Under the pieces are notes generated by a model that worked only from the letters and a program-made list of their open reading frames with translations, had not been told where the DNA came from and made no database searches. Shown piece after piece: positions 1 through 30,722 of a stretch of 37,699 nt of DNA. The number at the start of each line of letters is the position of its first letter. Positions within the stretch are counted from its first letter, which is position 1. This stretch comes from an uncultured Bacilli bacterium (GTDB lineage Bacteria; Bacillota_I; Bacilli_A; RF39; UBA660). The position numbers were made by a program, and so were the translations under genes. The stretch spans positions 1 to 37,699 of the forward strand of contig CASRZA010000003.1 in the NCBI GenBank assembly GCA_949439935.1, in the 5' to 3' direction.

Positions 1-4
1 TTTT

Positions 5-1045
5 GTGACAAAATTTACTATAGAAGAAAGTACAAAGAAACTAACTACAGAGGAGAAGTTAGCAAATCTTGGAATTAAAATTCAAGAGAGAACTCCAAAC
101 TTTGCAAATCCAGCTACAACAGACGAGACTGCAGATGGCTTGTTCAGTATGGAAGACGACTATGGAGTGAGTTACTATTATAGAGGAACGGCACCGGATA
201 ACTACATCAAATTCGGAAAAAATGCGAGTGGTCAAGATATGTGGTGGAGAATAATCAGATTCAATGGAGATGGAAGTATCAGAATGCAATACGACGGATC
301 AGGTGCATCTGGGTCTAATACATACACGAGAGGTTTTGCTCTGACGAGTCAAGTATGGAATACTAACTATAACGATGCCAAATATGTAGGTTGGATGTTC
401 GGAGGAGCGCAAGGAACAGCAAGTACGAGTAAAGCCCAAGCACAGACGAACGAGACTAACTCAGAGATCAAGATGGCAGTAGACAACTGGTATAAGAGTA
501 ACATAGTAGATACAGGATATAGTAATTATGTCCACGATGCAATCTTCTGTAATGACAGAAGCATACCAGGAAAGAGTCAAACAGGGTGGACAGATGACAC
601 AGGATTAGGATATGGAAAGAATGCAACAGGATATGGAGCGTATGCCAGAAGTGGAGTAGAATCAGTAAACTACAATAACGTAAGACCTCAATTCACATGT
701 CCACAAGACAACGACAAATTCACAGTAAGTGCAGAAAACGGAGGAAATGGAAACTCAACATATCCAGTAGGATTGATCACAGCAGATGAGATAGTGGCAG
801 CAGGAAGTGGAAAATACGGAACGATAAACCAAAGTTATTACTTAGCCAAAGGAAGTTGGTACTGGTCGTTCTCGCCTTACTATACACCTTACGCTGGCGT
901 GTTCAATGTCTACTCTACCGGTGTCTTGAGCCACTACAATGTGTACAACAGCGGTGCGGTCGCTCCAGTAATCAATCTGGGTGCCGAATACTTGAATCAG
1001 TTGAGAGGAACAGGAACTGCAAGTGATCCATTCCGAATAGGATAA
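5..1045 (+). CDS. 5'-truncated surface protein with C-terminal C-type-lectin-like (DUF6273-like) domain; probable DGR target
   Basis: Frame is open from the window edge. Motifs YYYRG..NYIKFG, WRIIRFNGDGSIR, FCNDRS, YPVGLITADE and YWSFSP...GAVAPVINL; Asn/Gly/Thr/Tyr rich. Confidence 0.75.
   Translation: MTKFTIEESTKKLTTEEKLANLGIKIQERTPNFANPATTDETADGLFSMEDDYGVSYYYRGTAPDNYIKFGKNASGQDMWWRIIRFNGDGSIRMQYDGSGASGSNTYTRGFALTSQVWNTNYNDAKYVGWMFGGAQGTASTSKAQAQTNETNSEIKMAVDNWYKSNIVDTGYSNYVHDAIFCNDRSIPGKSQTGWTDDTGLGYGKNATGYGAYARSGVESVNYNNVRPQFTCPQDNDKFTVSAENGGNGNSTYPVGLITADEIVAAGSGKYGTINQSYYLAKGSWYWSFSPYYTPYAGVFNVYSTGVLSHYNVYNSGAVAPVINLGAEYLNQLRGTGTASDPFRIG
857..976 (+). other. Putative DGR variable region (VR)
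   Basis: 1 of 36 codons in 857-964 ends in A versus 20 of 36 in 749-856. Scaffold residues use adenine-free codons; intervening codons are NNY. Confidence 0.7.
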
Positions 1046-1058
1046 TCGAAGATTGTCC
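1040..1058 (+). other. Hairpin with GAA triloop over the stop codon (candidate DGR homing hairpin)
   Basis: GGATAATC-GAA-GATTGTCC: 8-bp stem with one T.G pair. Confidence 0.5.
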
Positions 1059-1184: not shown

Positions 1185-2825
1185 TTATTTGACTAAGACG
1201 GCATGGACTACTAATCTGTTTTTCCCGTTACTTTGACAGGTCGACAGAGTAAGGATTTTATCGTTCTCTTTAATCTCTGCCCCGAAGTCGTAGATCGATC
1301 TCGATCTAAGCTTATCTACAAATGTTAAAAAATCTGTCTGAGTATCAAAATTATTATAAAGATAATCGTTAGTCGCCGCGATCGTATAGATAGAGAAAAT
1401 TCTCCACTGCATATCGCCTTTTTCAGTATTAAAAGTGATATATTGGTTCTCTGCTTTCGTATGCCAACTAGATTTTAAAGTTGCCGAAAGATTCCCGAAC
1501 ATCAACTTAGCTTTCGCAATATTGTGTCCATAAATAACCGTGTTCTGGTCCATATCATAAGCGTTGTTTCGATAGTCCATAAAGACCCAACCTAAAGAAT
1601 TCGAGTTCTTATTAAAGTCGTGATTCAAATAATAACTGTTGTTATTTCCCTGGACGACAGGGTAGTTGACAGTAGTATTATTTACAGTAAGCCATCCCAC
1701 AGTATCTGGATTCGTCTGTTTTAAAACCGAGATGACCTTCGCATAGTTCTTATAATAAGGGCTTACATAATTGTTTTTAGGTTTAGTCGTCGTAGGTGCA
1801 GTAGGTTCAGGAGACTGAGTAGTAGGAGTAGTCGTCGGCTCAGTCGGAGGGGTGGGATCCAAATATTCAAATTCCTCCAATAGATCCGATATGTCGTCGT
1901 TGATAGAATCGATCTCCGTAGAACTCATATAGATGTCATACTCGTTCAATCCATAGCCGATTATACAAGAGAATATGATGACGACGAGCATATACTTCAA
2001 AGTTGTAAAATTCAAAAGTTTCATAAAATTTTCAAATTTATATTCCTTAGTATAATCGATCTTAAACTTGATCTTATTTTGCTTTATATATTTACTCTTT
2101 TTAGCAAATTCCTCGAGGGCTAAAAAATAACTCAAATTATTTTCAGTACCCTTAATCGTAAGAGTTATACTCTTTTTCTTCGCTTCTTTTAAGTGCCTGA
2201 CTATACTTTTAATAAAGTCCATATCTATATATTCAAAATATATCGTCTTTAAATAGTTATTGATCGATAAAAACTGATCGAAATCCTTATAATCGAGATC
2301 TTTAAACTCATAATCTATGACGATCTTTCTTTTATAAAATACGTCCGAATAACTAGTAAGTTTGTTCACTCTCAAGAAATTACTGATATAGAAGACCTCG
2401 ACGCGAGTTTCTATTTTCACACCCTTAGTCGTATCTATTCTTTCCAAAAGATATGTTGGAATGGCATAAAGGTTGATATATCTTAAAGTATCGTTTTTCA
2501 AAATCGCCAAGTGCATCTCATAATCTATGCTGATGTCCGGTTTGATGATTAAATCGGTAATCGTGGGTATGTAATTCAAAAGTTCCAGTGAAGTAATTAT
2601 CAATTCCTCTTGATCGACGATCGCTTTGGTTATATTGTCATTTTTGACCATGACGTTCAAAAAACCAGCGACGAGCTTCAGATTATTCTTGAAATACTTC
2701 GTATCGAAAATCAGATCATCTTTAGATATGATATTTGTATTATTTAAGTTCTTAAACGCGTTGTTTTCGATCTTATAGCCTATAGTCAACGTATTGTCGT
2801 TTATTAAAAATTGGATCTTTTTCAT
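1185..2825 (-). CDS. srtB: Class B sortase with long N-terminal cytoplasmic domain
   Basis: C-terminal domain with NPDTVGWL, NYPVVQ, YYLNHDF, NTVIYGHN, LTLSTC, RLVVHA (His/Cys/Arg triad). Single TM at about aa 277-293, then a Pro/Thr linker. Confidence 0.9.
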   Translation of the reverse strand: MKKIQFLINDNTLTIGYKIENNAFKNLNNTNIISKDDLIFDTKYFKNNLKLVAGFLNVMVKNDNITKAIVDQEELIITSLELLNYIPTITDLIIKPDISIDYEMHLAILKNDTLRYINLYAIPTYLLERIDTTKGVKIETRVEVFYISNFLRVNKLTSYSDVFYKRKIVIDYEFKDLDYKDFDQFLSINNYLKTIYFEYIDMDFIKSIVRHLKEAKKKSITLTIKGTENNLSYFLALEEFAKKSKYIKQNKIKFKIDYTKEYKFENFMKLLNFTTLKYMLVVIIFSCIIGYGLNEYDIYMSSTEIDSINDDISDLLEEFEYLDPTPPTEPTTTPTTQSPEPTAPTTTKPKNNYVSPYYKNYAKVISVLKQTNPDTVGWLTVNNTTVNYPVVQGNNNSYYLNHDFNKNSNSLGWVFMDYRNNAYDMDQNTVIYGHNIAKAKLMFGNLSATLKSSWHTKAENQYITFNTEKGDMQWRIFSIYTIAATNDYLYNNFDTQTDFLTFVDKLRSRSIYDFGAEIKENDKILTLSTCQSNGKNRLVVHAVLVK

Positions 2826-3008: not shown

Positions 3009-4385
3009 ATGAATAAAATTTTAAAAGGACTAAGTGCTTTCGCAATTGCATCTGCGATTGGACTTAATACGTTGACAGTTAATGCTGCAACCACCTGTGA
3101 ACCTGGTGAAACTGAATACACAAACTATTATATGTTCCTAAACGAAGACACAGTCGATTACTTGACAAAAGGTGTAAATGAAGCACCAGCAGGTACGATA
3201 TTCGCCCTATATAATGGTGCTGATAAATATAACGACGTTCCGAACGGTAAAAAGTTAGACGATGGATACGTAAGAATTAAAAGTGGAAACAAAAGTACTA
3301 CTAATTCTAATACGAGCATCGAATGGACAGTAGCAGAATTCTGGCAGAAATACCATAAAGGATTCAATAACATGCGCAGTGACGGTTACGTCTATGAAGA
3401 CACAGTAAACCACGAATCTTACGTTTTCCATAACGAATGGTGGAAATTCGCCGATGAGACGTTTACAAACGGAACTCCGAGAGAACACGTGACTGATGCT
3501 ACGACTAAAGCCTTGCTAAACTATTTGGATAGCAACATCTCGAGCATCGCATCGTCTCCACTTGCAACGAGAGGTACAAACGTTCCAGAAACGTTTATCA
3601 CGATGCCTAACAACATCGGAAGTACCACTTCGAGTCCACTTAGATGGAACGTTGCGAGAAAAATAACGTCATCTGATCTATTAGAAGGTGTACAGATCGG
3701 TACAGGATCTAAGAAAATATGGTCTCCAGCTGCTTACTTCGTCAAATACTGTAAGGCAGATGGTGGAACGACACCTGAAAAAGAAAGAAAGATCACCTAT
3801 GATCCAAACACAACTTCTCAAGTAGCAGGAATGCCAGATCCTAATCCGTTCGTATTTAAAGATGCTTGTACAAACATCTCGACAAATACTCCTACGAGAA
3901 CAGATGGATATACATTCTTAGGATGGAGCAAAACTAAAACAGATACAAAAGGTGACCCAAAATACGCACCTAATGCACAGTACTGTGAGACTGAAGAAAA
4001 CATAACTCTTTACGCTATTTGGAAAGAAGTGGAAAAGAACGAAGATGGTTCGTATACGGTGACATACGATGCAAACGGAGGTAAAAATGCACCTTCTGCA
4101 CAAACTACACCTGACGGATCTTGTATGAACATTTCTTCTGGAAAGCCTACCTTGGCGAACAACAACTTCCTCGGATGGAGTAGAGATCCTAAGGCAAAAG
4201 AACCAGATCCAAGATATGCAGCAGGTGCAGAATACTGTGGTGCAGATGGAAACATCACTCTATACGCAGTATGGCAAGTACAATCTGGTATAAGTGCTCA
4301 CTTTATAGCATTTAGTTTGGTTGCTATAGCTGCCGCAGGAGCCCTAGTAGTTGCCCAAAGAAAAGACTTATTTAAGCAAATATAG
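3009..4385 (+). CDS. Cell-wall surface protein with two InlB B-like (Listeria-Bacteroides) repeats
   Basis: Signal peptide ending VNA; repeats ITYDPN..GYTFLGWS..ITLYAIW and VTYDANGG..FLGWS..ITLYAVW; C-terminal VQSG + hydrophobic stretch + basic tail. Confidence 0.85.
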   Translation: MNKILKGLSAFAIASAIGLNTLTVNAATTCEPGETEYTNYYMFLNEDTVDYLTKGVNEAPAGTIFALYNGADKYNDVPNGKKLDDGYVRIKSGNKSTTNSNTSIEWTVAEFWQKYHKGFNNMRSDGYVYEDTVNHESYVFHNEWWKFADETFTNGTPREHVTDATTKALLNYLDSNISSIASSPLATRGTNVPETFITMPNNIGSTTSSPLRWNVARKITSSDLLEGVQIGTGSKKIWSPAAYFVKYCKADGGTTPEKERKITYDPNTTSQVAGMPDPNPFVFKDACTNISTNTPTRTDGYTFLGWSKTKTDTKGDPKYAPNAQYCETEENITLYAIWKEVEKNEDGSYTVTYDANGGKNAPSAQTTPDGSCMNISSGKPTLANNNFLGWSRDPKAKEPDPRYAAGAEYCGADGNITLYAVWQVQSGISAHFIAFSLVAIAAAGALVVAQRKDLFKQI

Positions 4386-4414
4386 TAGATTTTTAAAAAA
4401 GTGATATTTAGGTA

Positions 4415-4443
4415 TTGCTTTTTTTTTGTTTTTGGTATAGAAT
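4415..4443 (+). promoter_or_regulatory. Sigma-A-type promoter with T9 tract
   Basis: TTGCTT-17 bp-TAGAAT; T run at 4419-4427. Confidence 0.5.
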
Positions 4444-4485
4444 AACTACTTGAAAAAGGGAAAGGAATTTTATTAGGGTGGTTAA

Positions 4486-5844
4486 ATGAAAAATTATTTA
4501 AAGTCACTAGCAGTTGGAGCTTTAGCTTTGACGATCGGATTAGGAACAGTGGAGGCAGCGACAGCAACGCAAAAAATAAATACAAATGCATGTGAAACTG
4601 TCTATACAAATTACTATTTCTTCTTAGATGCAAACACAGAAAGCTTTTTTAACAAAAGCGAATTATCACAAATTACACACAATACAGTAGCAGAATACAA
4701 AAATAACTCTTATCAAATAAGAAATTTTGATGCTTATAACATCGGATATGGAGAAGTCGATGTAGCGAGAACTACTACAACTTCTAAAGATGGTATAACT
4801 TCTATGTCTTTGAGCGATTTCTACGACATCGCTTTGAGAGCTTCTAGAACGAGTGGAGGATCATTCACACAAGGTGCGAACAACTATATCTTCGCTCACG
4901 ATTGGTATAGTGTCAACTCAAACGGAACAGCAAACAAAGAACCTGGTTCTCTAAATATTTCGAGCTTGACAAGAAATCAACTTATGAACGCAACAGTAGA
5001 TGCGATTACTACTATGACTAGAGAGTCTAGTGTAAATCCAAGTGCACCAAATCCATTTATCATAAAAGTTTTTAGAAACTATTATGGATATTTGACTGGA
5101 AAGCCAGCTAAAGTAGGTAACTACAATTGGTATTTCCATCCAGCAGTATATTACATACAATATTGTTCTACAAAACAAGATGAACCTGAACAAAAAGAAT
5201 ACAGAATCAATTATCATGAAAACGGTTCAAACGTAACTAATATGCCAAAGAACGAATGGGCTTATGAAGGAGAATGTTTGACTATTTCAAGTAAAGTACC
5301 AAAAAGACCTGGTTATAAATTCTTAGGTTGGTCTGAATCTTCTAAAAAGTTGGAAGATCCTTGGTATAAAGGCGATAGATACTGCGGTAAATATGGAGAC
5401 TTAGACCTATACGCTATATGGGAAAGAGAATCTTATCCAGTAAATCCTTCTATAGAGTATTACAACGTCTACTACAAGCCAAATACGACAGATGTCGTCA
5501 CAGGAATGCCTTCAGATAATAAAGACATACCTAACGATAGAGATGTTTACATCGCATCCAACGTTCCAGTTAGAGCAGGATTCACATTTGTAGGATGGGG
5601 ATTGACTAAAGATACTACTATTCCAGACTACAAAGGTAACGATCTTTACTCAGATAGAAAAGATTTAACTCTATATGCTATATGGGAAAAGAATCCCGAT
5701 CCAATAAAACCTGATCCAAAACCAGAACCTCCAGATAATCCTCAAACTGGTATAGAAGACTTCTTCGTACCTCTAGGTGGAGTAGCTTTGGTTGCAGGAC
5801 TTGGACTAAAATACATGAAAAAACGAATTTATGACAACTTATAA
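4486..5844 (+). CDS. Sortase-anchored surface protein with two InlB B-like repeats and NPQTG sorting signal
   Basis: Signal peptide ending VEA; GYKFLGWS..LDLYAIW and GFTFVGWG..LTLYAIW repeats; Pro-rich stalk; NPQTG + TM + KKR tail; paralogous to 3009..4385. Confidence 0.88.
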   Translation: MKNYLKSLAVGALALTIGLGTVEAATATQKINTNACETVYTNYYFFLDANTESFFNKSELSQITHNTVAEYKNNSYQIRNFDAYNIGYGEVDVARTTTTSKDGITSMSLSDFYDIALRASRTSGGSFTQGANNYIFAHDWYSVNSNGTANKEPGSLNISSLTRNQLMNATVDAITTMTRESSVNPSAPNPFIIKVFRNYYGYLTGKPAKVGNYNWYFHPAVYYIQYCSTKQDEPEQKEYRINYHENGSNVTNMPKNEWAYEGECLTISSKVPKRPGYKFLGWSESSKKLEDPWYKGDRYCGKYGDLDLYAIWERESYPVNPSIEYYNVYYKPNTTDVVTGMPSDNKDIPNDRDVYIASNVPVRAGFTFVGWGLTKDTTIPDYKGNDLYSDRKDLTLYAIWEKNPDPIKPDPKPEPPDNPQTGIEDFFVPLGGVALVAGLGLKYMKKRIYDNL

Positions 5845-11740: not shown

Positions 11741-13222
11741 GTGAACGAAATGAATCCATCTGGCGAAAAAAAAGATGACTCTTTAATAATAGAAACCAAT
11801 TTTGATGGTCAAGAGAAAACTAATTCTAAATCAAAAAATCCTGAAGATGTTCTTGCACAACTTCAAGCAAACAATACTAAAGTGAGTAAAAAAGCGCAAA
11901 AGACAAAAAAGATTCCTGCAAGACAATTACAAAGATTAGAAAACTTAAGAAAAGAGCTCTTACAATCTATAAACAGTGGATCGGATGAAAGATACGATAC
12001 TCCTCAGACGTTTCAATATAGATCGATGAATCCTGAGGGACGTCTAGAGACTGGCACTTTTATCGGCGTTTCAAAACTAGATATATACACTTTCCTAACA
12101 GGAGAAGGATATACGATATATAGTTTACAGACATCTAAACTTATCAATTTCGTATATGGACAAGCTGGAGGAAAATACAGCAGAATGTCCGTCAAAGACC
12201 TGATCTTCTTCATATCACAGCTAGAGACTTACATTAAATCGGGAATAACTCTTACTGAAGCGATGAGAATTTTAAGTAAGCAGCTGAAAAAAAACAAAAA
12301 ACAACACGCGATAACACAATCGATCGTCTACTATCTTACCATGGGTGAAGCTTTCAGCAGTGCTCTAGAAAAGCAAGTTGGAGCATTCCCACCACTAGTC
12401 ATCAACATGGTAAAAGCTGCCGAGGCTGCTGGTAACTTAGACGAGACTCTCGAAGATCTAAGTCACTACTACGAAGAGATAAACGCTACACAAAAACAGA
12501 TGATAAGCGCGATGACTTATCCTGCAGTAGTAGGTATATTCTCTTTGATAATTATAGCCTTTATTATGATCTCCATCGTTCCTCAATTCGTCGGAATATA
12601 TGCCTCAGCAGGAGCGGAGTTAAATCCACTTACGATATTCGTAATCAATTCGAGTAATTTCTTACAAAAATATATTTGGTACATAGTCGCCGGTATATTT
12701 GGAACTATAGGGTTGCTAGTTTTAGTTTATAAAGGATCTAAAGTGTTTAAGAAGCAGATGCAAACACTTATGATGCACATCCCGATACTGGGACAGATCA
12801 TCATATACAACGAACTTACTATATTTACTAAGACCTTCGCATCGCTTTTGAGAAACGACGTCTTTATAACCGACAGTATTGAGATCCTTTCCAAGATAAC
12901 GAATAACGAAGTCTATAGAGAAATCATGTTCGATACGATGAACAACATAACGCGAGGAGAAAAGATAAGTGAGTCTTTTAAAGACCATTGGGCCGTTCCA
13001 GACATCGCCTATTACATGTTAGTAACGGGAGAGAATACAGGTCAACTTCCTGCGATGATGTCTAAGGTAAGTTCCTATTATCAAGAACAACATAGGGCGA
13101 TCGTCAACTCCTTAAAAGCACTCATCGAGCCCATCTTGATAATCTTCTTAGCGGTCGTCGTCGGAGGAGTTTTGATCGCCGTAGTTTATCCGATGTTCGA
13201 ACTATACGGAAATATCATGTAG
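11741..13222 (+). CDS. pilC: Type IV pilus / T2SS F-family platform protein
   Basis: Two T2SSF domains (AAEAAGNL; TGENTGQL), AMTYPAVV, LIEPILI, YPMFELY; GTG start with SD AAGG. Confidence 0.92.
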   Translation: MNEMNPSGEKKDDSLIIETNFDGQEKTNSKSKNPEDVLAQLQANNTKVSKKAQKTKKIPARQLQRLENLRKELLQSINSGSDERYDTPQTFQYRSMNPEGRLETGTFIGVSKLDIYTFLTGEGYTIYSLQTSKLINFVYGQAGGKYSRMSVKDLIFFISQLETYIKSGITLTEAMRILSKQLKKNKKQHAITQSIVYYLTMGEAFSSALEKQVGAFPPLVINMVKAAEAAGNLDETLEDLSHYYEEINATQKQMISAMTYPAVVGIFSLIIIAFIMISIVPQFVGIYASAGAELNPLTIFVINSSNFLQKYIWYIVAGIFGTIGLLVLVYKGSKVFKKQMQTLMMHIPILGQIIIYNELTIFTKTFASLLRNDVFITDSIEILSKITNNEVYREIMFDTMNNITRGEKISESFKDHWAVPDIAYYMLVTGENTGQLPAMMSKVSSYYQEQHRAIVNSLKALIEPILIIFLAVVVGGVLIAVVYPMFELYGNIM

Positions 13223-13232
13223 AAGGTACATC

Positions 13233-13994
13233 ATGATCCAATATATATTTATATTTGTACTAGGTTCAGTTCTCGCATCGTTCATGCACGTATACGTCAC
13301 CAGACTCCTAGCCGAACAGTCGATCGTCAAACCACGTAGCCATTGCACGACATGTGGACACACTCTTAGTTGGTATGAACTGATACCGATCGTCTCATAT
13401 GCGATCCAAAAAGGTAGATGTCGAAATTGCAAGGCGAAAATAGGAATCGACTCACTGTTGATAGAAATAATCACAGGTTTACTGTTCGTGGTGACGTTCG
13501 CTATATTCGGTTATACGTTTAAAACGCTTTTAGGATTCGTCATAGTTTTAATAATGATCTCCGTATTTCTAAGCGATTTTAAAGAGATGATAATCTTAGA
13601 TAGCACATTAATAGTAGGAATGATATTGATATATCTTTTGATCTATCTAGATTTAGGACTTTGGAAAGGAATTTACAAGAGCTTCCTCTACGGAGTGTTC
13701 GCCTTTGTACTCATGATAGTGGTCAAAGTTCTAGGAGATGCCGCCTTCAAACGAGATTCACTAGGAGGAGGGGATATAAAACTCGCTTTCCTGATGGGTT
13801 CGATACTTCCATACAATCTATTTCTCATATCGATCGTCATAGGATCTACCTGTGCGCTTCCATATGCTTTATATATATCTATTACCAAAAAGACGAACGA
13901 ACTGGCCTTCGGTCCATTTCTAGTCTTAGGGTTATACTTGACATTCATATTACAAAATCATATTTTAGAATTTTTAAATTTACTCATTAACTAG
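13233..13994 (+). CDS. pilD: Prepilin peptidase (A24)
   Basis: PRSHCTTC, ELIPIVSY, GRCRNC, GGGDIKL, FGPFL. Confidence 0.95.
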   Translation: MIQYIFIFVLGSVLASFMHVYVTRLLAEQSIVKPRSHCTTCGHTLSWYELIPIVSYAIQKGRCRNCKAKIGIDSLLIEIITGLLFVVTFAIFGYTFKTLLGFVIVLIMISVFLSDFKEMIILDSTLIVGMILIYLLIYLDLGLWKGIYKSFLYGVFAFVLMIVVKVLGDAAFKRDSLGGGDIKLAFLMGSILPYNLFLISIVIGSTCALPYALYISITKKTNELAFGPFLVLGLYLTFILQNHILEFLNLLIN

Positions 13995-17633: not shown

Positions 17634-19241
17634 ATGGATAATAAAAACAAGAAAACACTATTGGCAATATTAATTTCGATCATAGTAATATCACTAGCCA
17701 TATCGACAGCATATCTGATGACAGACATACTACCTAGTTTAAATGATCCCTTAAATATAGGAGCAAATACAGATAATCTAACTTTAATATATGCAGACTG
17801 TGCAGATGATAATCCATTTCATTGTGAAAACATCAACAAAGATTTATCTCTAGGAGAAAGTGTAGAGAAGACATTTCAAATAAAGAACGAATCTAATAGG
17901 GAACTAAGCTATACTCTTTATTTCAAGCACTTACAAAATACTTTTAAAAACGATGAGTTGGTTTACAAAATAGAAAACATCGACACAGGAGAAGTTCTCA
18001 TAGATACGACACCAGTTCCATATAGAGAAGTTAAAACTGCGAATGTAACGATAAAAAATAGCATAGAGATAGAAGGTAATACTACTCAAAACTATAAAAT
18101 GACAGTAATTTTCTTGAATAAAGGTTACAACCAAAACGAGAATTTAAATGCAAAGTACTCCATAAAACTGTCTATAGTACCAAGCGACACAGTACTATCT
18201 GAATCCATTTCGAATGAACTGATGGCAACACAGTTCAGATATGATTCTGAAGCTGGTGAAAATGTATTTAAAGAGGGTATATGGCAACATAATAAAGAGA
18301 TAAAAAAAATAATCTTTGAAGATACATTAAATCCAAAAGAAAATGCAAGTTATGTATACGACATATCTAGTGTCCAGAATGAAAGTGTAATGGCCTATCT
18401 AGTACCAGATGCAGAAGATAATACAAAATATATCACATATATCCAATCGGATGGAGAAGTTATAGCAAATAGGGATAGTTCAGGTTTATTTTCTGGCTTC
18501 ACGAATTTAGAGAACATAGACAATTTAACAAACTTAAATACAACTAATGTGCTCCTCATGTCTGAAATGTTTTCTGGCTGTAGCTCTTTAAAAACGCTTG
18601 ATTTAAGTCGTCTTGATACAAGCAAAGTTATTGATATGTCTGGGATGTTTGCTGAGTGCAGAAGTTTAACAACGTTGAATCTAGGTAACTTCGACACAAG
18701 CAAATTAATAAACATAGAAAGTATGTTTGCTAATTGTCGAAATTTAATATCATTAAATATAGATAATTTAAATACTAGCAAAGTAACGAATATGAGGAAT
18801 ATTTTTAGTGGCTGTCAAAGCTTGGCAACATTAGACCTAAGTAATTTTAACACAAATAACGTCACTGATATGTCAGGAATGTTTAGTTATTGTAATAGCT
18901 TAATGATATTGAATTTAAAGAACTTTGATACTAGCAAGGTTACAGATATGTCTGGAATGTTTTATGACTGTAGTAGTTTAACAAAATTAAATATAGACAA
19001 CTTCGATACAAGTCAAGTTATAAGTATGAACAATATGTTTGAAGGATGCCGCAATCTAACAACGACGATCACTATAAGAGGAACAAAGTGTACCAATTAT
19101 AGTAAAATGTTTGAAAATGGACCTGGTGTACCTCCTGCAACTATAACTGTAAATTACACGGAAGAAGCCTCTAGCTTAGTAGATAACATGATAGCTACTA
19201 ACACTCAAGGTTATGTAAAAAAAGGTATCAAAGTTTCATAA
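17634..19241 (+). CDS. BspA-like/DUF285 leucine-rich-repeat surface protein with N-terminal TasA/camelysin-like domain
   Basis: About seven 26-aa repeats (FDTSKVTDMSGMFYDCSSLTKLNIDN); signal peptide ending STAYL; GESVEKTFQIKN..LVY..NQNEN beta domain. Confidence 0.85.
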   Translation: MDNKNKKTLLAILISIIVISLAISTAYLMTDILPSLNDPLNIGANTDNLTLIYADCADDNPFHCENINKDLSLGESVEKTFQIKNESNRELSYTLYFKHLQNTFKNDELVYKIENIDTGEVLIDTTPVPYREVKTANVTIKNSIEIEGNTTQNYKMTVIFLNKGYNQNENLNAKYSIKLSIVPSDTVLSESISNELMATQFRYDSEAGENVFKEGIWQHNKEIKKIIFEDTLNPKENASYVYDISSVQNESVMAYLVPDAEDNTKYITYIQSDGEVIANRDSSGLFSGFTNLENIDNLTNLNTTNVLLMSEMFSGCSSLKTLDLSRLDTSKVIDMSGMFAECRSLTTLNLGNFDTSKLINIESMFANCRNLISLNIDNLNTSKVTNMRNIFSGCQSLATLDLSNFNTNNVTDMSGMFSYCNSLMILNLKNFDTSKVTDMSGMFYDCSSLTKLNIDNFDTSQVISMNNMFEGCRNLTTTITIRGTKCTNYSKMFENGPGVPPATITVNYTEEASSLVDNMIATNTQGYVKKGIKVS

Positions 19242-28558: not shown

Positions 28559-28584
28559 GAAAACAGAAAGTAGGGAAAATGTTC

Positions 28585-29127
28585 ATGAAGAATAGAAAAA
28601 AGGCAAATAAGAAAGGTTTCACATTAATAGAATTGTTAGCCGTAATCGTAGTGTTAGCTATTATCATGATTTTAGCCGTTCCTAACATCATCGAATCTAT
28701 GAACAAAGCAAAAAAGAAATCGTTCCAAATGTATGGTGAGAAAATGTTTAATTCTGCTTTACAAGAATATGAATCTAGAAAGATGCTCAATGAAGCGATA
28801 AGTCCACACGTTTTTGAATATGATAGTTCTGGAAATAGAGAATATTGCTATACTTTTGAAGACATTGGTATAAATAGTCCAGGAAACTACAAAGGCTTCG
28901 TTCGTGTCAATCATAGGACGACGACGACAGGCGGCAAATCCGATACGACTTACCAAATCTACTTGACAGACGATGCATATCTTTATAATGGTACATTCTC
29001 AAACGACGTACAAAACAAGATAGATTCTATCTTAAATATCGATTGTGATAAATCTTCAAATGAAGCATGCTTATCGTTGAGTGAAGCTACAGAATTGATG
29101 AAAAAATGTACTGAGGGAACAAAGTAA
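28585..29127 (+). CDS. Type IV pilin (prepilin-type N-terminal cleavage/methylation)
   Basis: KKG|FTLIELLAVIVVLAIIMILAVP with E5; start 28579 or 28585. Confidence 0.92.
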   Translation: MKNRKKANKKGFTLIELLAVIVVLAIIMILAVPNIIESMNKAKKKSFQMYGEKMFNSALQEYESRKMLNEAISPHVFEYDSSGNREYCYTFEDIGINSPGNYKGFVRVNHRTTTTGGKSDTTYQIYLTDDAYLYNGTFSNDVQNKIDSILNIDCDKSSNEACLSLSEATELMKKCTEGTK

Positions 29128-30146: not shown

Positions 30147-30722
30147 ATGAAAAAATTTAAGAAAAACTTCACTATGGTCGGTCTTATAATAATGATTGTA
30201 GGTGTAATGCTTTTTATATCGAATAAAACAGTGATAAGCCAAGAGTCCGAACTGTCTAAAAACTCTTTAATATCGATGTATGTTCAGGATATACATGAAG
30301 AATATCAGATAAACGATTCAAAAGAATTCCCGAGAAAAGGATATAATCTAAATTTAGAACGAAGCAAATGCTCCAATGGTGGAATTCTATCTCAAGATCC
30401 TGAAACATTAACTATAAATATGACATCAGAGAATTCTGAAAGATGTACACTATATTTCGATATGACAATTTATCGCGTCACAATAATGGTTGACGATCTC
30501 GTAATTCTCAGGGGTAATTTTCAACAAGGTGAAACTCTATCATCAATATTGTCAGATATATCAGATCCTTCGAAAGAAGGTTATGTATTCGAAGGATGGA
30601 CCATAGATGGAGTACTGGTCGACCTAGATAAGGAATTAACTGGCGATGTTACGATTACACCCCGATGGAAACCTATAGATCCTGCCGAGCCAGAGATTCC
30701 TATAGATCCTGACTTTGAATAA
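30147..30722 (+). CDS. Exported/membrane-anchored protein with two-Cys domain and one InlB B-like repeat
   Basis: N-terminal hydrophobic helix; FP..GY.LN..SKCSNG..CTLYFD; PSKEGYVFEGW..VTITPRW. Confidence 0.75.
   Translation: MKKFKKNFTMVGLIIMIVGVMLFISNKTVISQESELSKNSLISMYVQDIHEEYQINDSKEFPRKGYNLNLERSKCSNGGILSQDPETLTINMTSENSERCTLYFDMTIYRVTIMVDDLVILRGNFQQGETLSSILSDISDPSKEGYVFEGWTIDGVLVDLDKELTGDVTITPRWKPIDPAEPEIPIDPDFE

Follow-up and report, generated by a model that had tools for sequence, protein, structure and literature searches.

The stretch of DNA analysed here, hereafter the window, comprises the first 37,699 bases of contig C3 in the genome assembly of an uncultured Bacilli bacterium (1.43 Mb, 109 contigs, 91% complete). 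Its first gene, at 2..1045 on the plus strand, has its 5' end cut by the contig start and retains a 3' part of 347 codons in the open reading frame (ORF) listing. Close to the end of this gene is a tract that very probably represents the variable region (VR) of a target of a diversity-generating retroelement (DGR), as had been proposed in an original prediction made from the sequence of the window alone. The codon table of the ORF reproduces exactly the change in codon usage reported there: codons ending in A make up 20 of 36 at 749-856 and 1 of 36 at 857-964, and when a 36-codon frame is slid along the ORF their number is lowest at codon 284 (approximately position 854) and reaches 22 at most elsewhere. 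The tract also has the described alternation of adenine-free scaffold codons (TGG TCG TTC TCG CCT, GTG TTC, GGT, TTG, GTG, and GGT GCG GTC GCT) with NNY codons (TAC, TAT, GGC, AAT, ACC, AGC, CAC, and AAC), ACA at 884 being the sole exception. Both the reverse transcriptase (RT) and the template were expected to lie outside the window, and this was correct: no window ORF matches RVT_1, and the sole match to a template repeat (TR) within contig C3 is the VR itself.

Judged from sequence comparison, this flip in codon usage is no product of chance, since the tract closely copies a non-coding template in another part of the genome. The search that the original prediction had proposed, a BLASTN of the whole genome at word size 7 (run here with query 800-1060), recovered that template, TR4 (C68:3041-3154, minus strand), on the 6,838-bp contig C68, to which an RVT_1 search of the genome also led. 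In an ungapped alignment TR4 is homologous to 106 nt of the window (863..968, plus strand), with 12 mismatches, 12 of 12 at adenines of the TR and none at other bases. Adenines occupy 31 of the 106 aligned positions of TR4, giving a hypergeometric P of 6.4e-8 for all 12 mismatches falling on them. The first and last mismatches delimit a tract of adenine-derived substitutions at 878..944 (plus strand), and the scaffold positions of the VR are 100% identical to the TR, whereas the surrounding gene sequence of the nearest paralog is only 78% identical. Both fragments of the template that had been predicted agree with TR4 letter for letter up to CCAG, after which the TR reads CTACC and the VR reads TAATC.

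The same switch defines the 3' boundary of the VR, which resembles an initiation of mutagenic homing (IMH) site. At 950..973 (plus strand) the window contains the GC-rich sequence AGCGGTGCGGTCGCTCCAG, common to all four TRs of the genome, followed by TAATC where the TRs have CTACC. Across the genome the block GCGGTGCGGTCGCTCCAG is common to TRs and VRs and is followed by TAATC (with minor variants) in 16 VRs and by CTACC in 4 of 4 TRs, which makes the shared block with its two endings an IMH/IMH* pair. At the opposite end, TTC just 5' of the repeat in every TR is replaced by TAC or TAT in nearly every VR, and this difference marks the 5' boundary of the repeat.

In accordance with the proposal that this is a chromosomal DGR target served from elsewhere, the minus strand of C68 carries, in order, a sister target gene, a MutS-like (MSL) gene, an Avd-like gene, the RT gene, and four tandem TR modules. 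The sister target gene is represented by its 3' end (C68:6610-6837, minus strand), cut by the contig end. The MSL ORF (121 aa) matches MutS_I (MutS domain I) at 28.3 bits (cut-off, 20.6), and the 124-aa Avd-like ORF between MSL and the RT has matches to bAvd and DivGenRetAVD that fall below the curated cut-offs. The RT itself (380 aa; C68:4492-5631, minus strand) matches RVT_1 at 65 bits and contains IGSLTSQ and YMDD, which we take to be marks of DGR RTs. Among solved structures its best relative is 8ub7_A (E 4e-28), a 328-aa "Reverse transcriptase" and presumably the Bordetella phage bRT; the best group II maturase follows at E 3e-10. All three of these ORFs are intact; at the 10 loci of RT relatives that we examined, the Avd-like gene is kept in 7 and MSL in 4. 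The only other RT of the genome (C4:7377-8399; L001 1405-2427) is of the retron type, with matches to Retron_TIR_antiphage (338 bits) and retron Ec67 (325 bits) that are both below cut-off. It lies directly after a DnaB_C-like helicase gene and is probably a defence retron unrelated to the DGR.

Between the RT and the ribosomal protein genes are four non-coding modules of approximately 400 nt, each holding an AAY-rich template: TR1 (C68:4283-4405, 123 nt), TR2 (C68:3881-3994, 114 nt), TR3 (C68:3448-3570, 123 nt), and TR4 (114 nt), all on the minus strand. The four TRs share one IMH and one 5' homology block and come in two lengths, 114 or 123 nt. Approximately 190 nt after each TR is conserved among the four modules, and each module consists of a TR and a conserved structured RNA of approximately 130 nt; homologous spacer modules of sister genomes likewise follow AAY-rich TRs. 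In a consensus of the spacer RNA built from 16 modules of 6 genomes, 97.5% of the cells pair and 11 of the 32 pairs show compensatory changes. None of 500 shuffles was as good, and the covariation score was 0.264, whereas sliding the partners gave 0.086 at most. Rfam contained nothing that matches the TR-spacer modules at E up to 0.1, and its only hit on C68 was a ribosomal protein L10 leader (RF00557, 76.5 bits) just downstream of the TR array (L003 1093-1207, minus strand); the DGR cassette therefore abuts the rplK-rplA-rplJ-rplL region. In the Bordetella phage the non-coding region 3' of the TR (Sp) binds Avd and supplies the priming 2'-OH (PMC6182149, available in part), an analogy under which all four modules would each amount to a complete DGR RNA. 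A promoter scan gave no evidence that the modules are transcribed separately: TTGAAA-17-TATCAT occurs upstream of modules 1 and 3, but the total of 22 in the scan lies within the shuffle expectation of 17.5 +/- 4.5.

The window gene is one member of a large family, for which tblastn found 34 loci in the genome. Allowing up to 3 substitutions in the 18-nt IMH, we located 21 sites: the four TRs, 16 genes of this family, and one site on C42, which was dropped as a target because it has at least 27 non-adenine mismatches to every TR. All VR-TR mismatches were counted over the TR-homologous block only and are given here as adenine/non-adenine. TR4 corresponds to the VRs of the window (12/0) and C101 (12/2), and TR1 corresponds to those of C17 (13/0) and C79 (12/7). 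TR2 has the most partners, namely C19 (18/1), C47 (15/1), C32 (14/3), C51 (12/3), and C59 (18/4), and TR3 is matched by C68 (13/0), C14 (20/5), C6 (17/12), and C84 (17/14). Of the 15 IMH-bearing genes other than the window gene, 8 match one TR with 12-18 adenine mismatches and 4 or fewer others, and overall we count at least 11 VRs whose divergence is cleanly of the adenine-only kind. The VRs of C6, C84, and C79, with 7-14 non-adenine mismatches, look decayed. The remaining three are mosaics. The VR of C60 combines a 5' half from TR2 (3/0) with a 3' half from TR3 (6/2), that of C70 combines a TR1-like 5' half (3/2) with a TR3 3' half (10/0), and in C37 a 5' half matching no template precedes a TR3 3' half (13/1). 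Neither a spacer DNA search nor a covariance model (R1) found a fifth module in the assembled genome, in which the mosaic VRs are therefore without a cognate template. Contig ends cut 15 of the 16 IMH-bearing genes, and thus the assembly breaks on the target family. Paralogs that lack the IMH have ordinary AT-rich or intermediate codons in the stretch equivalent to the VR. Such paralogs occur on C9, C24, C28, C36, C82, C94, C102, and C108; some of them have A-ending codons at only 1-3 of 36 positions, which would suit former VRs in decay, and others, such as C9 with 9 of 36, use ordinary codons.

At the protein level, 3,574 relatives of the family are present in the database at E up to 1e-5, and the names listed are all "hypothetical protein [Bacilli bacterium]". 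Full-length homologs are either approximately 525 aa long with a camelysin/TasA-type N-terminal leader or 444 aa long with a different signal-like N terminus. P0002, P0090, and P0093 match positions 6-86 of Peptidase_M73 at 23-26 bits (cut-off, 22.5), and the 444-aa P0006 and P0019 do not. The window copy corresponds to the long form from residue 172 of P0002, its own N terminus having been lost at the contig start. The same VR (C37 type, WYRSFSP...) is found on the 524-aa P0002 and the 447-aa P0010, which have different N termini. The first part of P0002 is identical to the window protein, but P0002 ends with the C terminus of C37; either recombination between paralogs or chimeric assemblies would produce this sharing.

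The window protein matched no Pfam family at E up to 1 (including DUF1566 and DUF823 as well as Fib_succ_major) and no NCBIfam family, and a profile of 51 homologs matched no PDB sequence at E up to 1. An AlphaFold2 model of the 347 residues, built with 51 sequences, had a pLDDT of 84.6 and a pTM of 0.88, and in Foldseek it gave one clear match, 9qa6 (E 1e-6). The N-terminal domain of 9qa6_A was likewise the best match in VIA-align, with a Z of 12.1, a root-mean-square deviation of 3.6 A, and 17% identity over 190 aligned residues (chain residues 37-303). Further matches were the Bacteroides fimbrial protein 4eps (Z 6.3), the C-terminal domain of Lcl (8q4e_A, 5.9), and TvpA (2y3c_A, 4.9), after which come over 30 C-type lectins with Z values of 3.4-4.4. 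The original prediction had expected a C-type-lectin fold, and the fold search supports it: on the model, the target protein is an enlarged C-type-lectin-like domain with the VR at its C-terminal end, and the modelled resemblance to DUF1566/Lcl is one of fold only, not of sequence. These data point to a secreted or surface lectin-like binder, for which the role of adhesin named in the original prediction is a possible one. Variation in the family is concentrated where the template would place it. Across the 51 homologs, mean entropy is 2.99 bits for the 16 VR codons with a templating adenine at position 1 or 2, compared with 1.13 bits for the other 20 VR codons and 1.09 bits for the other 311 columns (Mann-Whitney p 7e-11), and the protein columns matching 878-944 are the most variable of all. 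The anticipated excess of variation at templated codons is therefore present when taken across homologs.

We consider it very probable that 863-968 of the window is the VR of a chromosomal DGR target that is rewritten in trans by mutagenic retrohoming from the TR4 module of C68. The adenine-specific relation between TR and VR and the components of the cassette are demonstrated by the data above. For the remaining steps (transcription, self-priming, adenine infidelity, and IMH-anchored replacement) we draw on the Bordetella phage paradigm (PMC5758913, available in part). Under this paradigm, the TR4 module would be transcribed and its TR4-spacer RNA bound by RT-Avd, and cDNA synthesis would be self-primed from the spacer, starting in the GC-rich IMH* block. 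The adenines of the TR would be copied unfaithfully, and the cDNA would replace the VR, with the IMH (950-968 plus TAATC) as its anchor and with resolution by the 5' homology at TGGTCGTTCTCGCC. Approximately 16 AAY-templated residues would then be free to vary and the A-free scaffold codons would stay fixed, and it is because these residues vary within a fixed A-free scaffold that codon usage would flip so abruptly.

Several observations weigh against this interpretation. The TR and the VR lie on different contigs of the assembly (109 contigs, 91% complete), and their physical linkage rests on binning. The matches of the Avd-like protein are weak (bAvd, 29.8 bits against a cut-off of 40, E 9e-7; DivGenRetAVD, 22.4 bits against a cut-off of 80, E 1e-4), and a PDB sequence search with this protein gave no match. 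No conserved inverted repeat is present in the 130 nt after the VR across the 16 targets, although a GC-rich inverted repeat follows the IMH in 127 of 372 DGRs (34%) and hence is not obligatory (PMC5758913, the part available). Metagenomes are also relevant here. The unique flank of the window was found in 17 runs of 11 studies, comprising metagenomes of mouse gut or mouse and related records, and variation in the VR was compared on assembled Logan contigs of 4 mouse-gut runs, each from a different study. In every one of the 4, a contig covers 1025-2000 with 2-6 differences and ends at approximately 1025, the edge of the sequence shared among paralogs, and these contigs give no direct sign of ongoing diversification. 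Inside the VR, contigs in the TR4 state are present in all 4 of these independent runs, in which the unique flank also occurs, and this constancy of the template speaks for the proposed reading; the only other contig there is a C101-like one in run X3, and the window's own allele was not seen in the 4 runs. This contig of run X3, which belongs to another study, spans window 851-984 (134 nt) and has the differences expected of the C101 TR4-type allele, which hints that the C101-type VR allele is stable across samples and studies.

These metagenomic observations also bear on the alternative that survives best, namely that a DGR wrote the VR in the past and that the locus, or the whole element, no longer diversifies and leaves only a frozen footprint. 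The contigs of the 4 runs do not demonstrate population variation, and the reappearance of an apparent C101 allele in a run of another study counts in its favour. Parts of the family point the same way, including the decayed-looking paralogs C6, C84, and C79 and several of the 8 VR-equivalent regions that a strict IMH pattern left unflagged (one of them, C101, does bear an IMH), which are poor in A-ending codons. Such a footprint is difficult to reconcile with the state of the window VR, which has no non-adenine mismatch over 106 nt despite belonging to a fast-diverging gene family, or with the intact IMH, the intact RT, Avd-like, and MSL ORFs, and four spacer RNAs that retain their pairing through compensatory changes. 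We therefore regard a fossil target as unlikely and continue to favour a VR that is rewritten from TR4.

The window also contains a hairpin over the TAA stop codon (1043-1045), which the original prediction had put forward as an element of DGR target recognition. The hairpin exists: at 1040..1058 (plus strand), a stem of 8 pairs, one of them G-T, closes a 3-nt GAA loop. Bordetella and Legionella DGRs require an inverted repeat after the IMH (PMC5758913, in the part available), and a cruciform at this position would be in keeping with them, but the role did not stand. [quoted passage not shown] That it acts as the target-recognition cruciform of this DGR is highly improbable. Less credible still is a reading without any retroelement, in which a conserved C-terminal motif of odd codon usage is homogenised among paralogs by gene conversion: the 34 family loci with their evident recombination or mosaicism speak for it, but it leaves unexplained why a non-coding donor has an adenine wherever the VR varies, why 12 of 12 mismatches fall on adenines, and why the donors adjoin an RT and an Avd-like gene, so that the TR-VR comparison appears to have effectively refuted it already.

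Given retrohoming from C68, the arrangement of the cassette raises a broader proposal, for which we judge the case to be evenly balanced: that a single RT draws on four interchangeable modules, each a template plus spacer RNA, arrayed as a tandem library. The IMH and the 5' homology block are common to all 16 targets, and each of these could therefore receive any of the templates. The three mosaic VRs (C60, C70, and C37), all with adenine-type mismatches, count in favour of this. In addition, the TR type of a gene is that of its nearest 3'-flank neighbour in only 4 of 16 genes, and the pairs with the closest 3' flanks, C47/C68 at 96% and C19/C70 at 92%, are of differing TR type. Mosaic VRs and the incongruence between flank and template suggest that templates have been swapped between targets, but the same picture could result if paralogs have recombined or if the assembly lacks some TRs. 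If the templates are interchangeable, loop length (22 or 25 codons) and scaffold would be switched in addition to the point diversity, and mosaic VRs would arise from partial integration of cDNA at the conserved central GTGTTC block.

The sister genomes of the genus also count towards interchangeable templates, since sister species have 4-5 modules scattered over contigs. A DNA search with the spacer found 4 copies in tandem in the genome of the window (G000), 4 copies on four contigs in G012, 5 in G011, 2 in G005, and 1 in G014. The modules of G012 lie on its contigs C4, C13, C27, and C14, and those of G011 lie at L017 657-938 and 2686-2952 and on its contigs C14, C7, and C46; the TR sequences differ. 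The two G011 modules at L017, 2 kb apart and upstream of the RT, are 94% identical over 284 nt. In G014 the only module found (C2:219271-219417) is on the same contig as the RT (C2:35612-36721) but approximately 183 kb away, and it would therefore be missed by standard searches for a TR near the RT. When 121 genomes sampled from the family were searched with the covariance model R1, modules were found in 5, with more than one copy only in G000 and G012, the two genomes of the genus that were searched with R1. Two or more spacer motifs within 6 kb were present in only 2 of 80 RT-related loci from other genomes. Of the 17 other genomes of the genus, 9 have the RT itself; identities are 40-68%, except for one partial match at 39%. 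Its relatives are found in metagenome-assembled genomes of uncultured gut Bacilli or "Tenericutes", in Candidatus Onthousia, and in Firmicutes bacterium CAG:822, hosts that we take to belong to the RF39 group.

Comparison with known systems places the element among DGRs of a familiar mechanism. Like the Legionella pneumophila DGR with target LdtA (Architecture D/CLec2), it has an MSL accessory gene in addition to an Avd-like gene; MSL with avd is the "Architecture D" of Wu et al., counted in 16 of 372 DGRs including the Legionella element (PMC5758913, the part available). In both, the VR is at the C terminus of a C-type-lectin-like domain of a surface protein, of the DUF1566/Lcl type in Legionella, and the window model matches Lcl (8q4e_A) at Z 5.9. 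The window protein, however, contains no DUF1566 or other Pfam family (E up to 1), its domain is approximately twice the typical size, and the element has four TRs, 16 IMH-bearing targets, and no conserved inverted repeat after the IMH. In its scattering of many paralogous surface targets of C-type-lectin fold under one RT, the element resembles that of Treponema denticola, which comprises TvpA and seven remote targets (PMC5758913), and TvpA (2y3c_A) matches the window model at Z 4.9. Treponema differs in having HRDC, not MSL, and a CLec1 domain of the FGE-sulfatase type. For Treponema in oral metagenomes, the available part of PMC4891356 describes several TRs per individual and not several TRs beside one RT.

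More than one TR for several VRs is also known from DGRs found by MetaCSST, for example in Stenotrophomonas sp. SKA14, with two TRs, six VRs, and DUF1566 targets; according to the part of PMC6642488 available, 271 of 948 DGRs had multiple VRs and 216 of these 271 had a single TR. Here, in contrast, four complete TR-plus-spacer-RNA modules follow the RT head to tail, the TRs share one IMH and one 5' homology block at lengths of 114 or 123 nt, and some VRs are two-TR mosaics. The Bordetella phage BPP-1 DGR provides the likeness in mechanism, with adenine-specific transfer from TR to VR, a GC-rich IMH/IMH* boundary, and, immediately 3' of the TR, a structured non-coding RNA whose BPP-1 counterpart binds Avd and primes cDNA synthesis (PMC6182149, the part available) and which here would do so by analogy. 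The present element differs from it in being chromosomal and not phage-borne, in acting in trans on remote targets, and in having the RT before the TR. The closest structural match, at Z 12.1, is the N-terminal domain of the Thomasclavelia ramosa IgA peptidase (IgAse; 9qa6), which its authors describe as an enlarged C-type-lectin-like domain resembling Lcl (PMC12237041). The two have no detectable sequence homology, and the IgAse domain is N-terminal to a metallopeptidase whereas the window family has no peptidase domain. We found no description of the IgAse domain as DGR-diversified in the literature consulted.

DGRs, remote targets, and MSL accessories are therefore already known (PMC5758913, available in part; PMC10907252), and elements with more than one TR have been counted (PMC6642488, available in part). 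What the literature searches did not yield was a tandem array of complete TR-spacer modules behind one RT, one IMH common to 16 targets, or mosaic VRs with incongruence between flank and template; the supplementary tables of PMC5758913 and PMC6642488, outside this search, may list such cases. The mechanism is thus a known one, and the layout, with multiple templates and multiple targets, is unusual. In a gut bacterium with a genome of about 1.4-1.6 Mb, 34 loci are given over to a single lectin-like surface family; at least 16 of these bear the IMH and come under one RT with four templates, and the 16 exceed the maximum of eight targets quoted in the 2018 survey (PMC5758913, the part available). 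Pipelines that seek one TR beside the RT would under-count such systems because the modules of sister genomes sit on other contigs or 183 kb from the RT. Here the DGR target was recognised from codon composition alone, and its template predicted almost exactly, with the RT and the template out of view. Programmable DGR mutagenesis is reportedly being engineered at present (bioRxiv preprint 10.64898/2026.07.21.739853), and if the templates are interchangeable, this element would be a natural multiplexed form of it.

The remainder of the window contains several other genes of note. Convergent with the DGR target is a gene at 1185-2825 (minus strand) for a 546-aa protein whose sortase domain is confined to residues 379-545 and preceded by a long N-terminal extension that includes a proline/threonine-rich linker. 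It has orthologs in 18 of 18 genomes of the genus, and its convergence with the DGR target is found here and not in 9 relatives checked; none of the loci fetched from these 9 relatives in a search for orthologous alleles by synteny has a VR-type gene beside the sortase-fusion gene. Other putative surface proteins are encoded at 3009-5844, 17634-19241, and 30147-30722, and this cluster comprises two proteins of approximately 455 aa that have Listeria-Bacteroides repeats and are anchored in the membrane at the C terminus, one DUF285 protein of the Mycoplasma type, and one small protein that is Flg_new-like. Genes at 11741-13994 and 28579-29127 are type IV pilus- or competence-like and include a T2SSF platform protein, a prepilin peptidase (A24), and a pilin with an N-terminal methylation motif.

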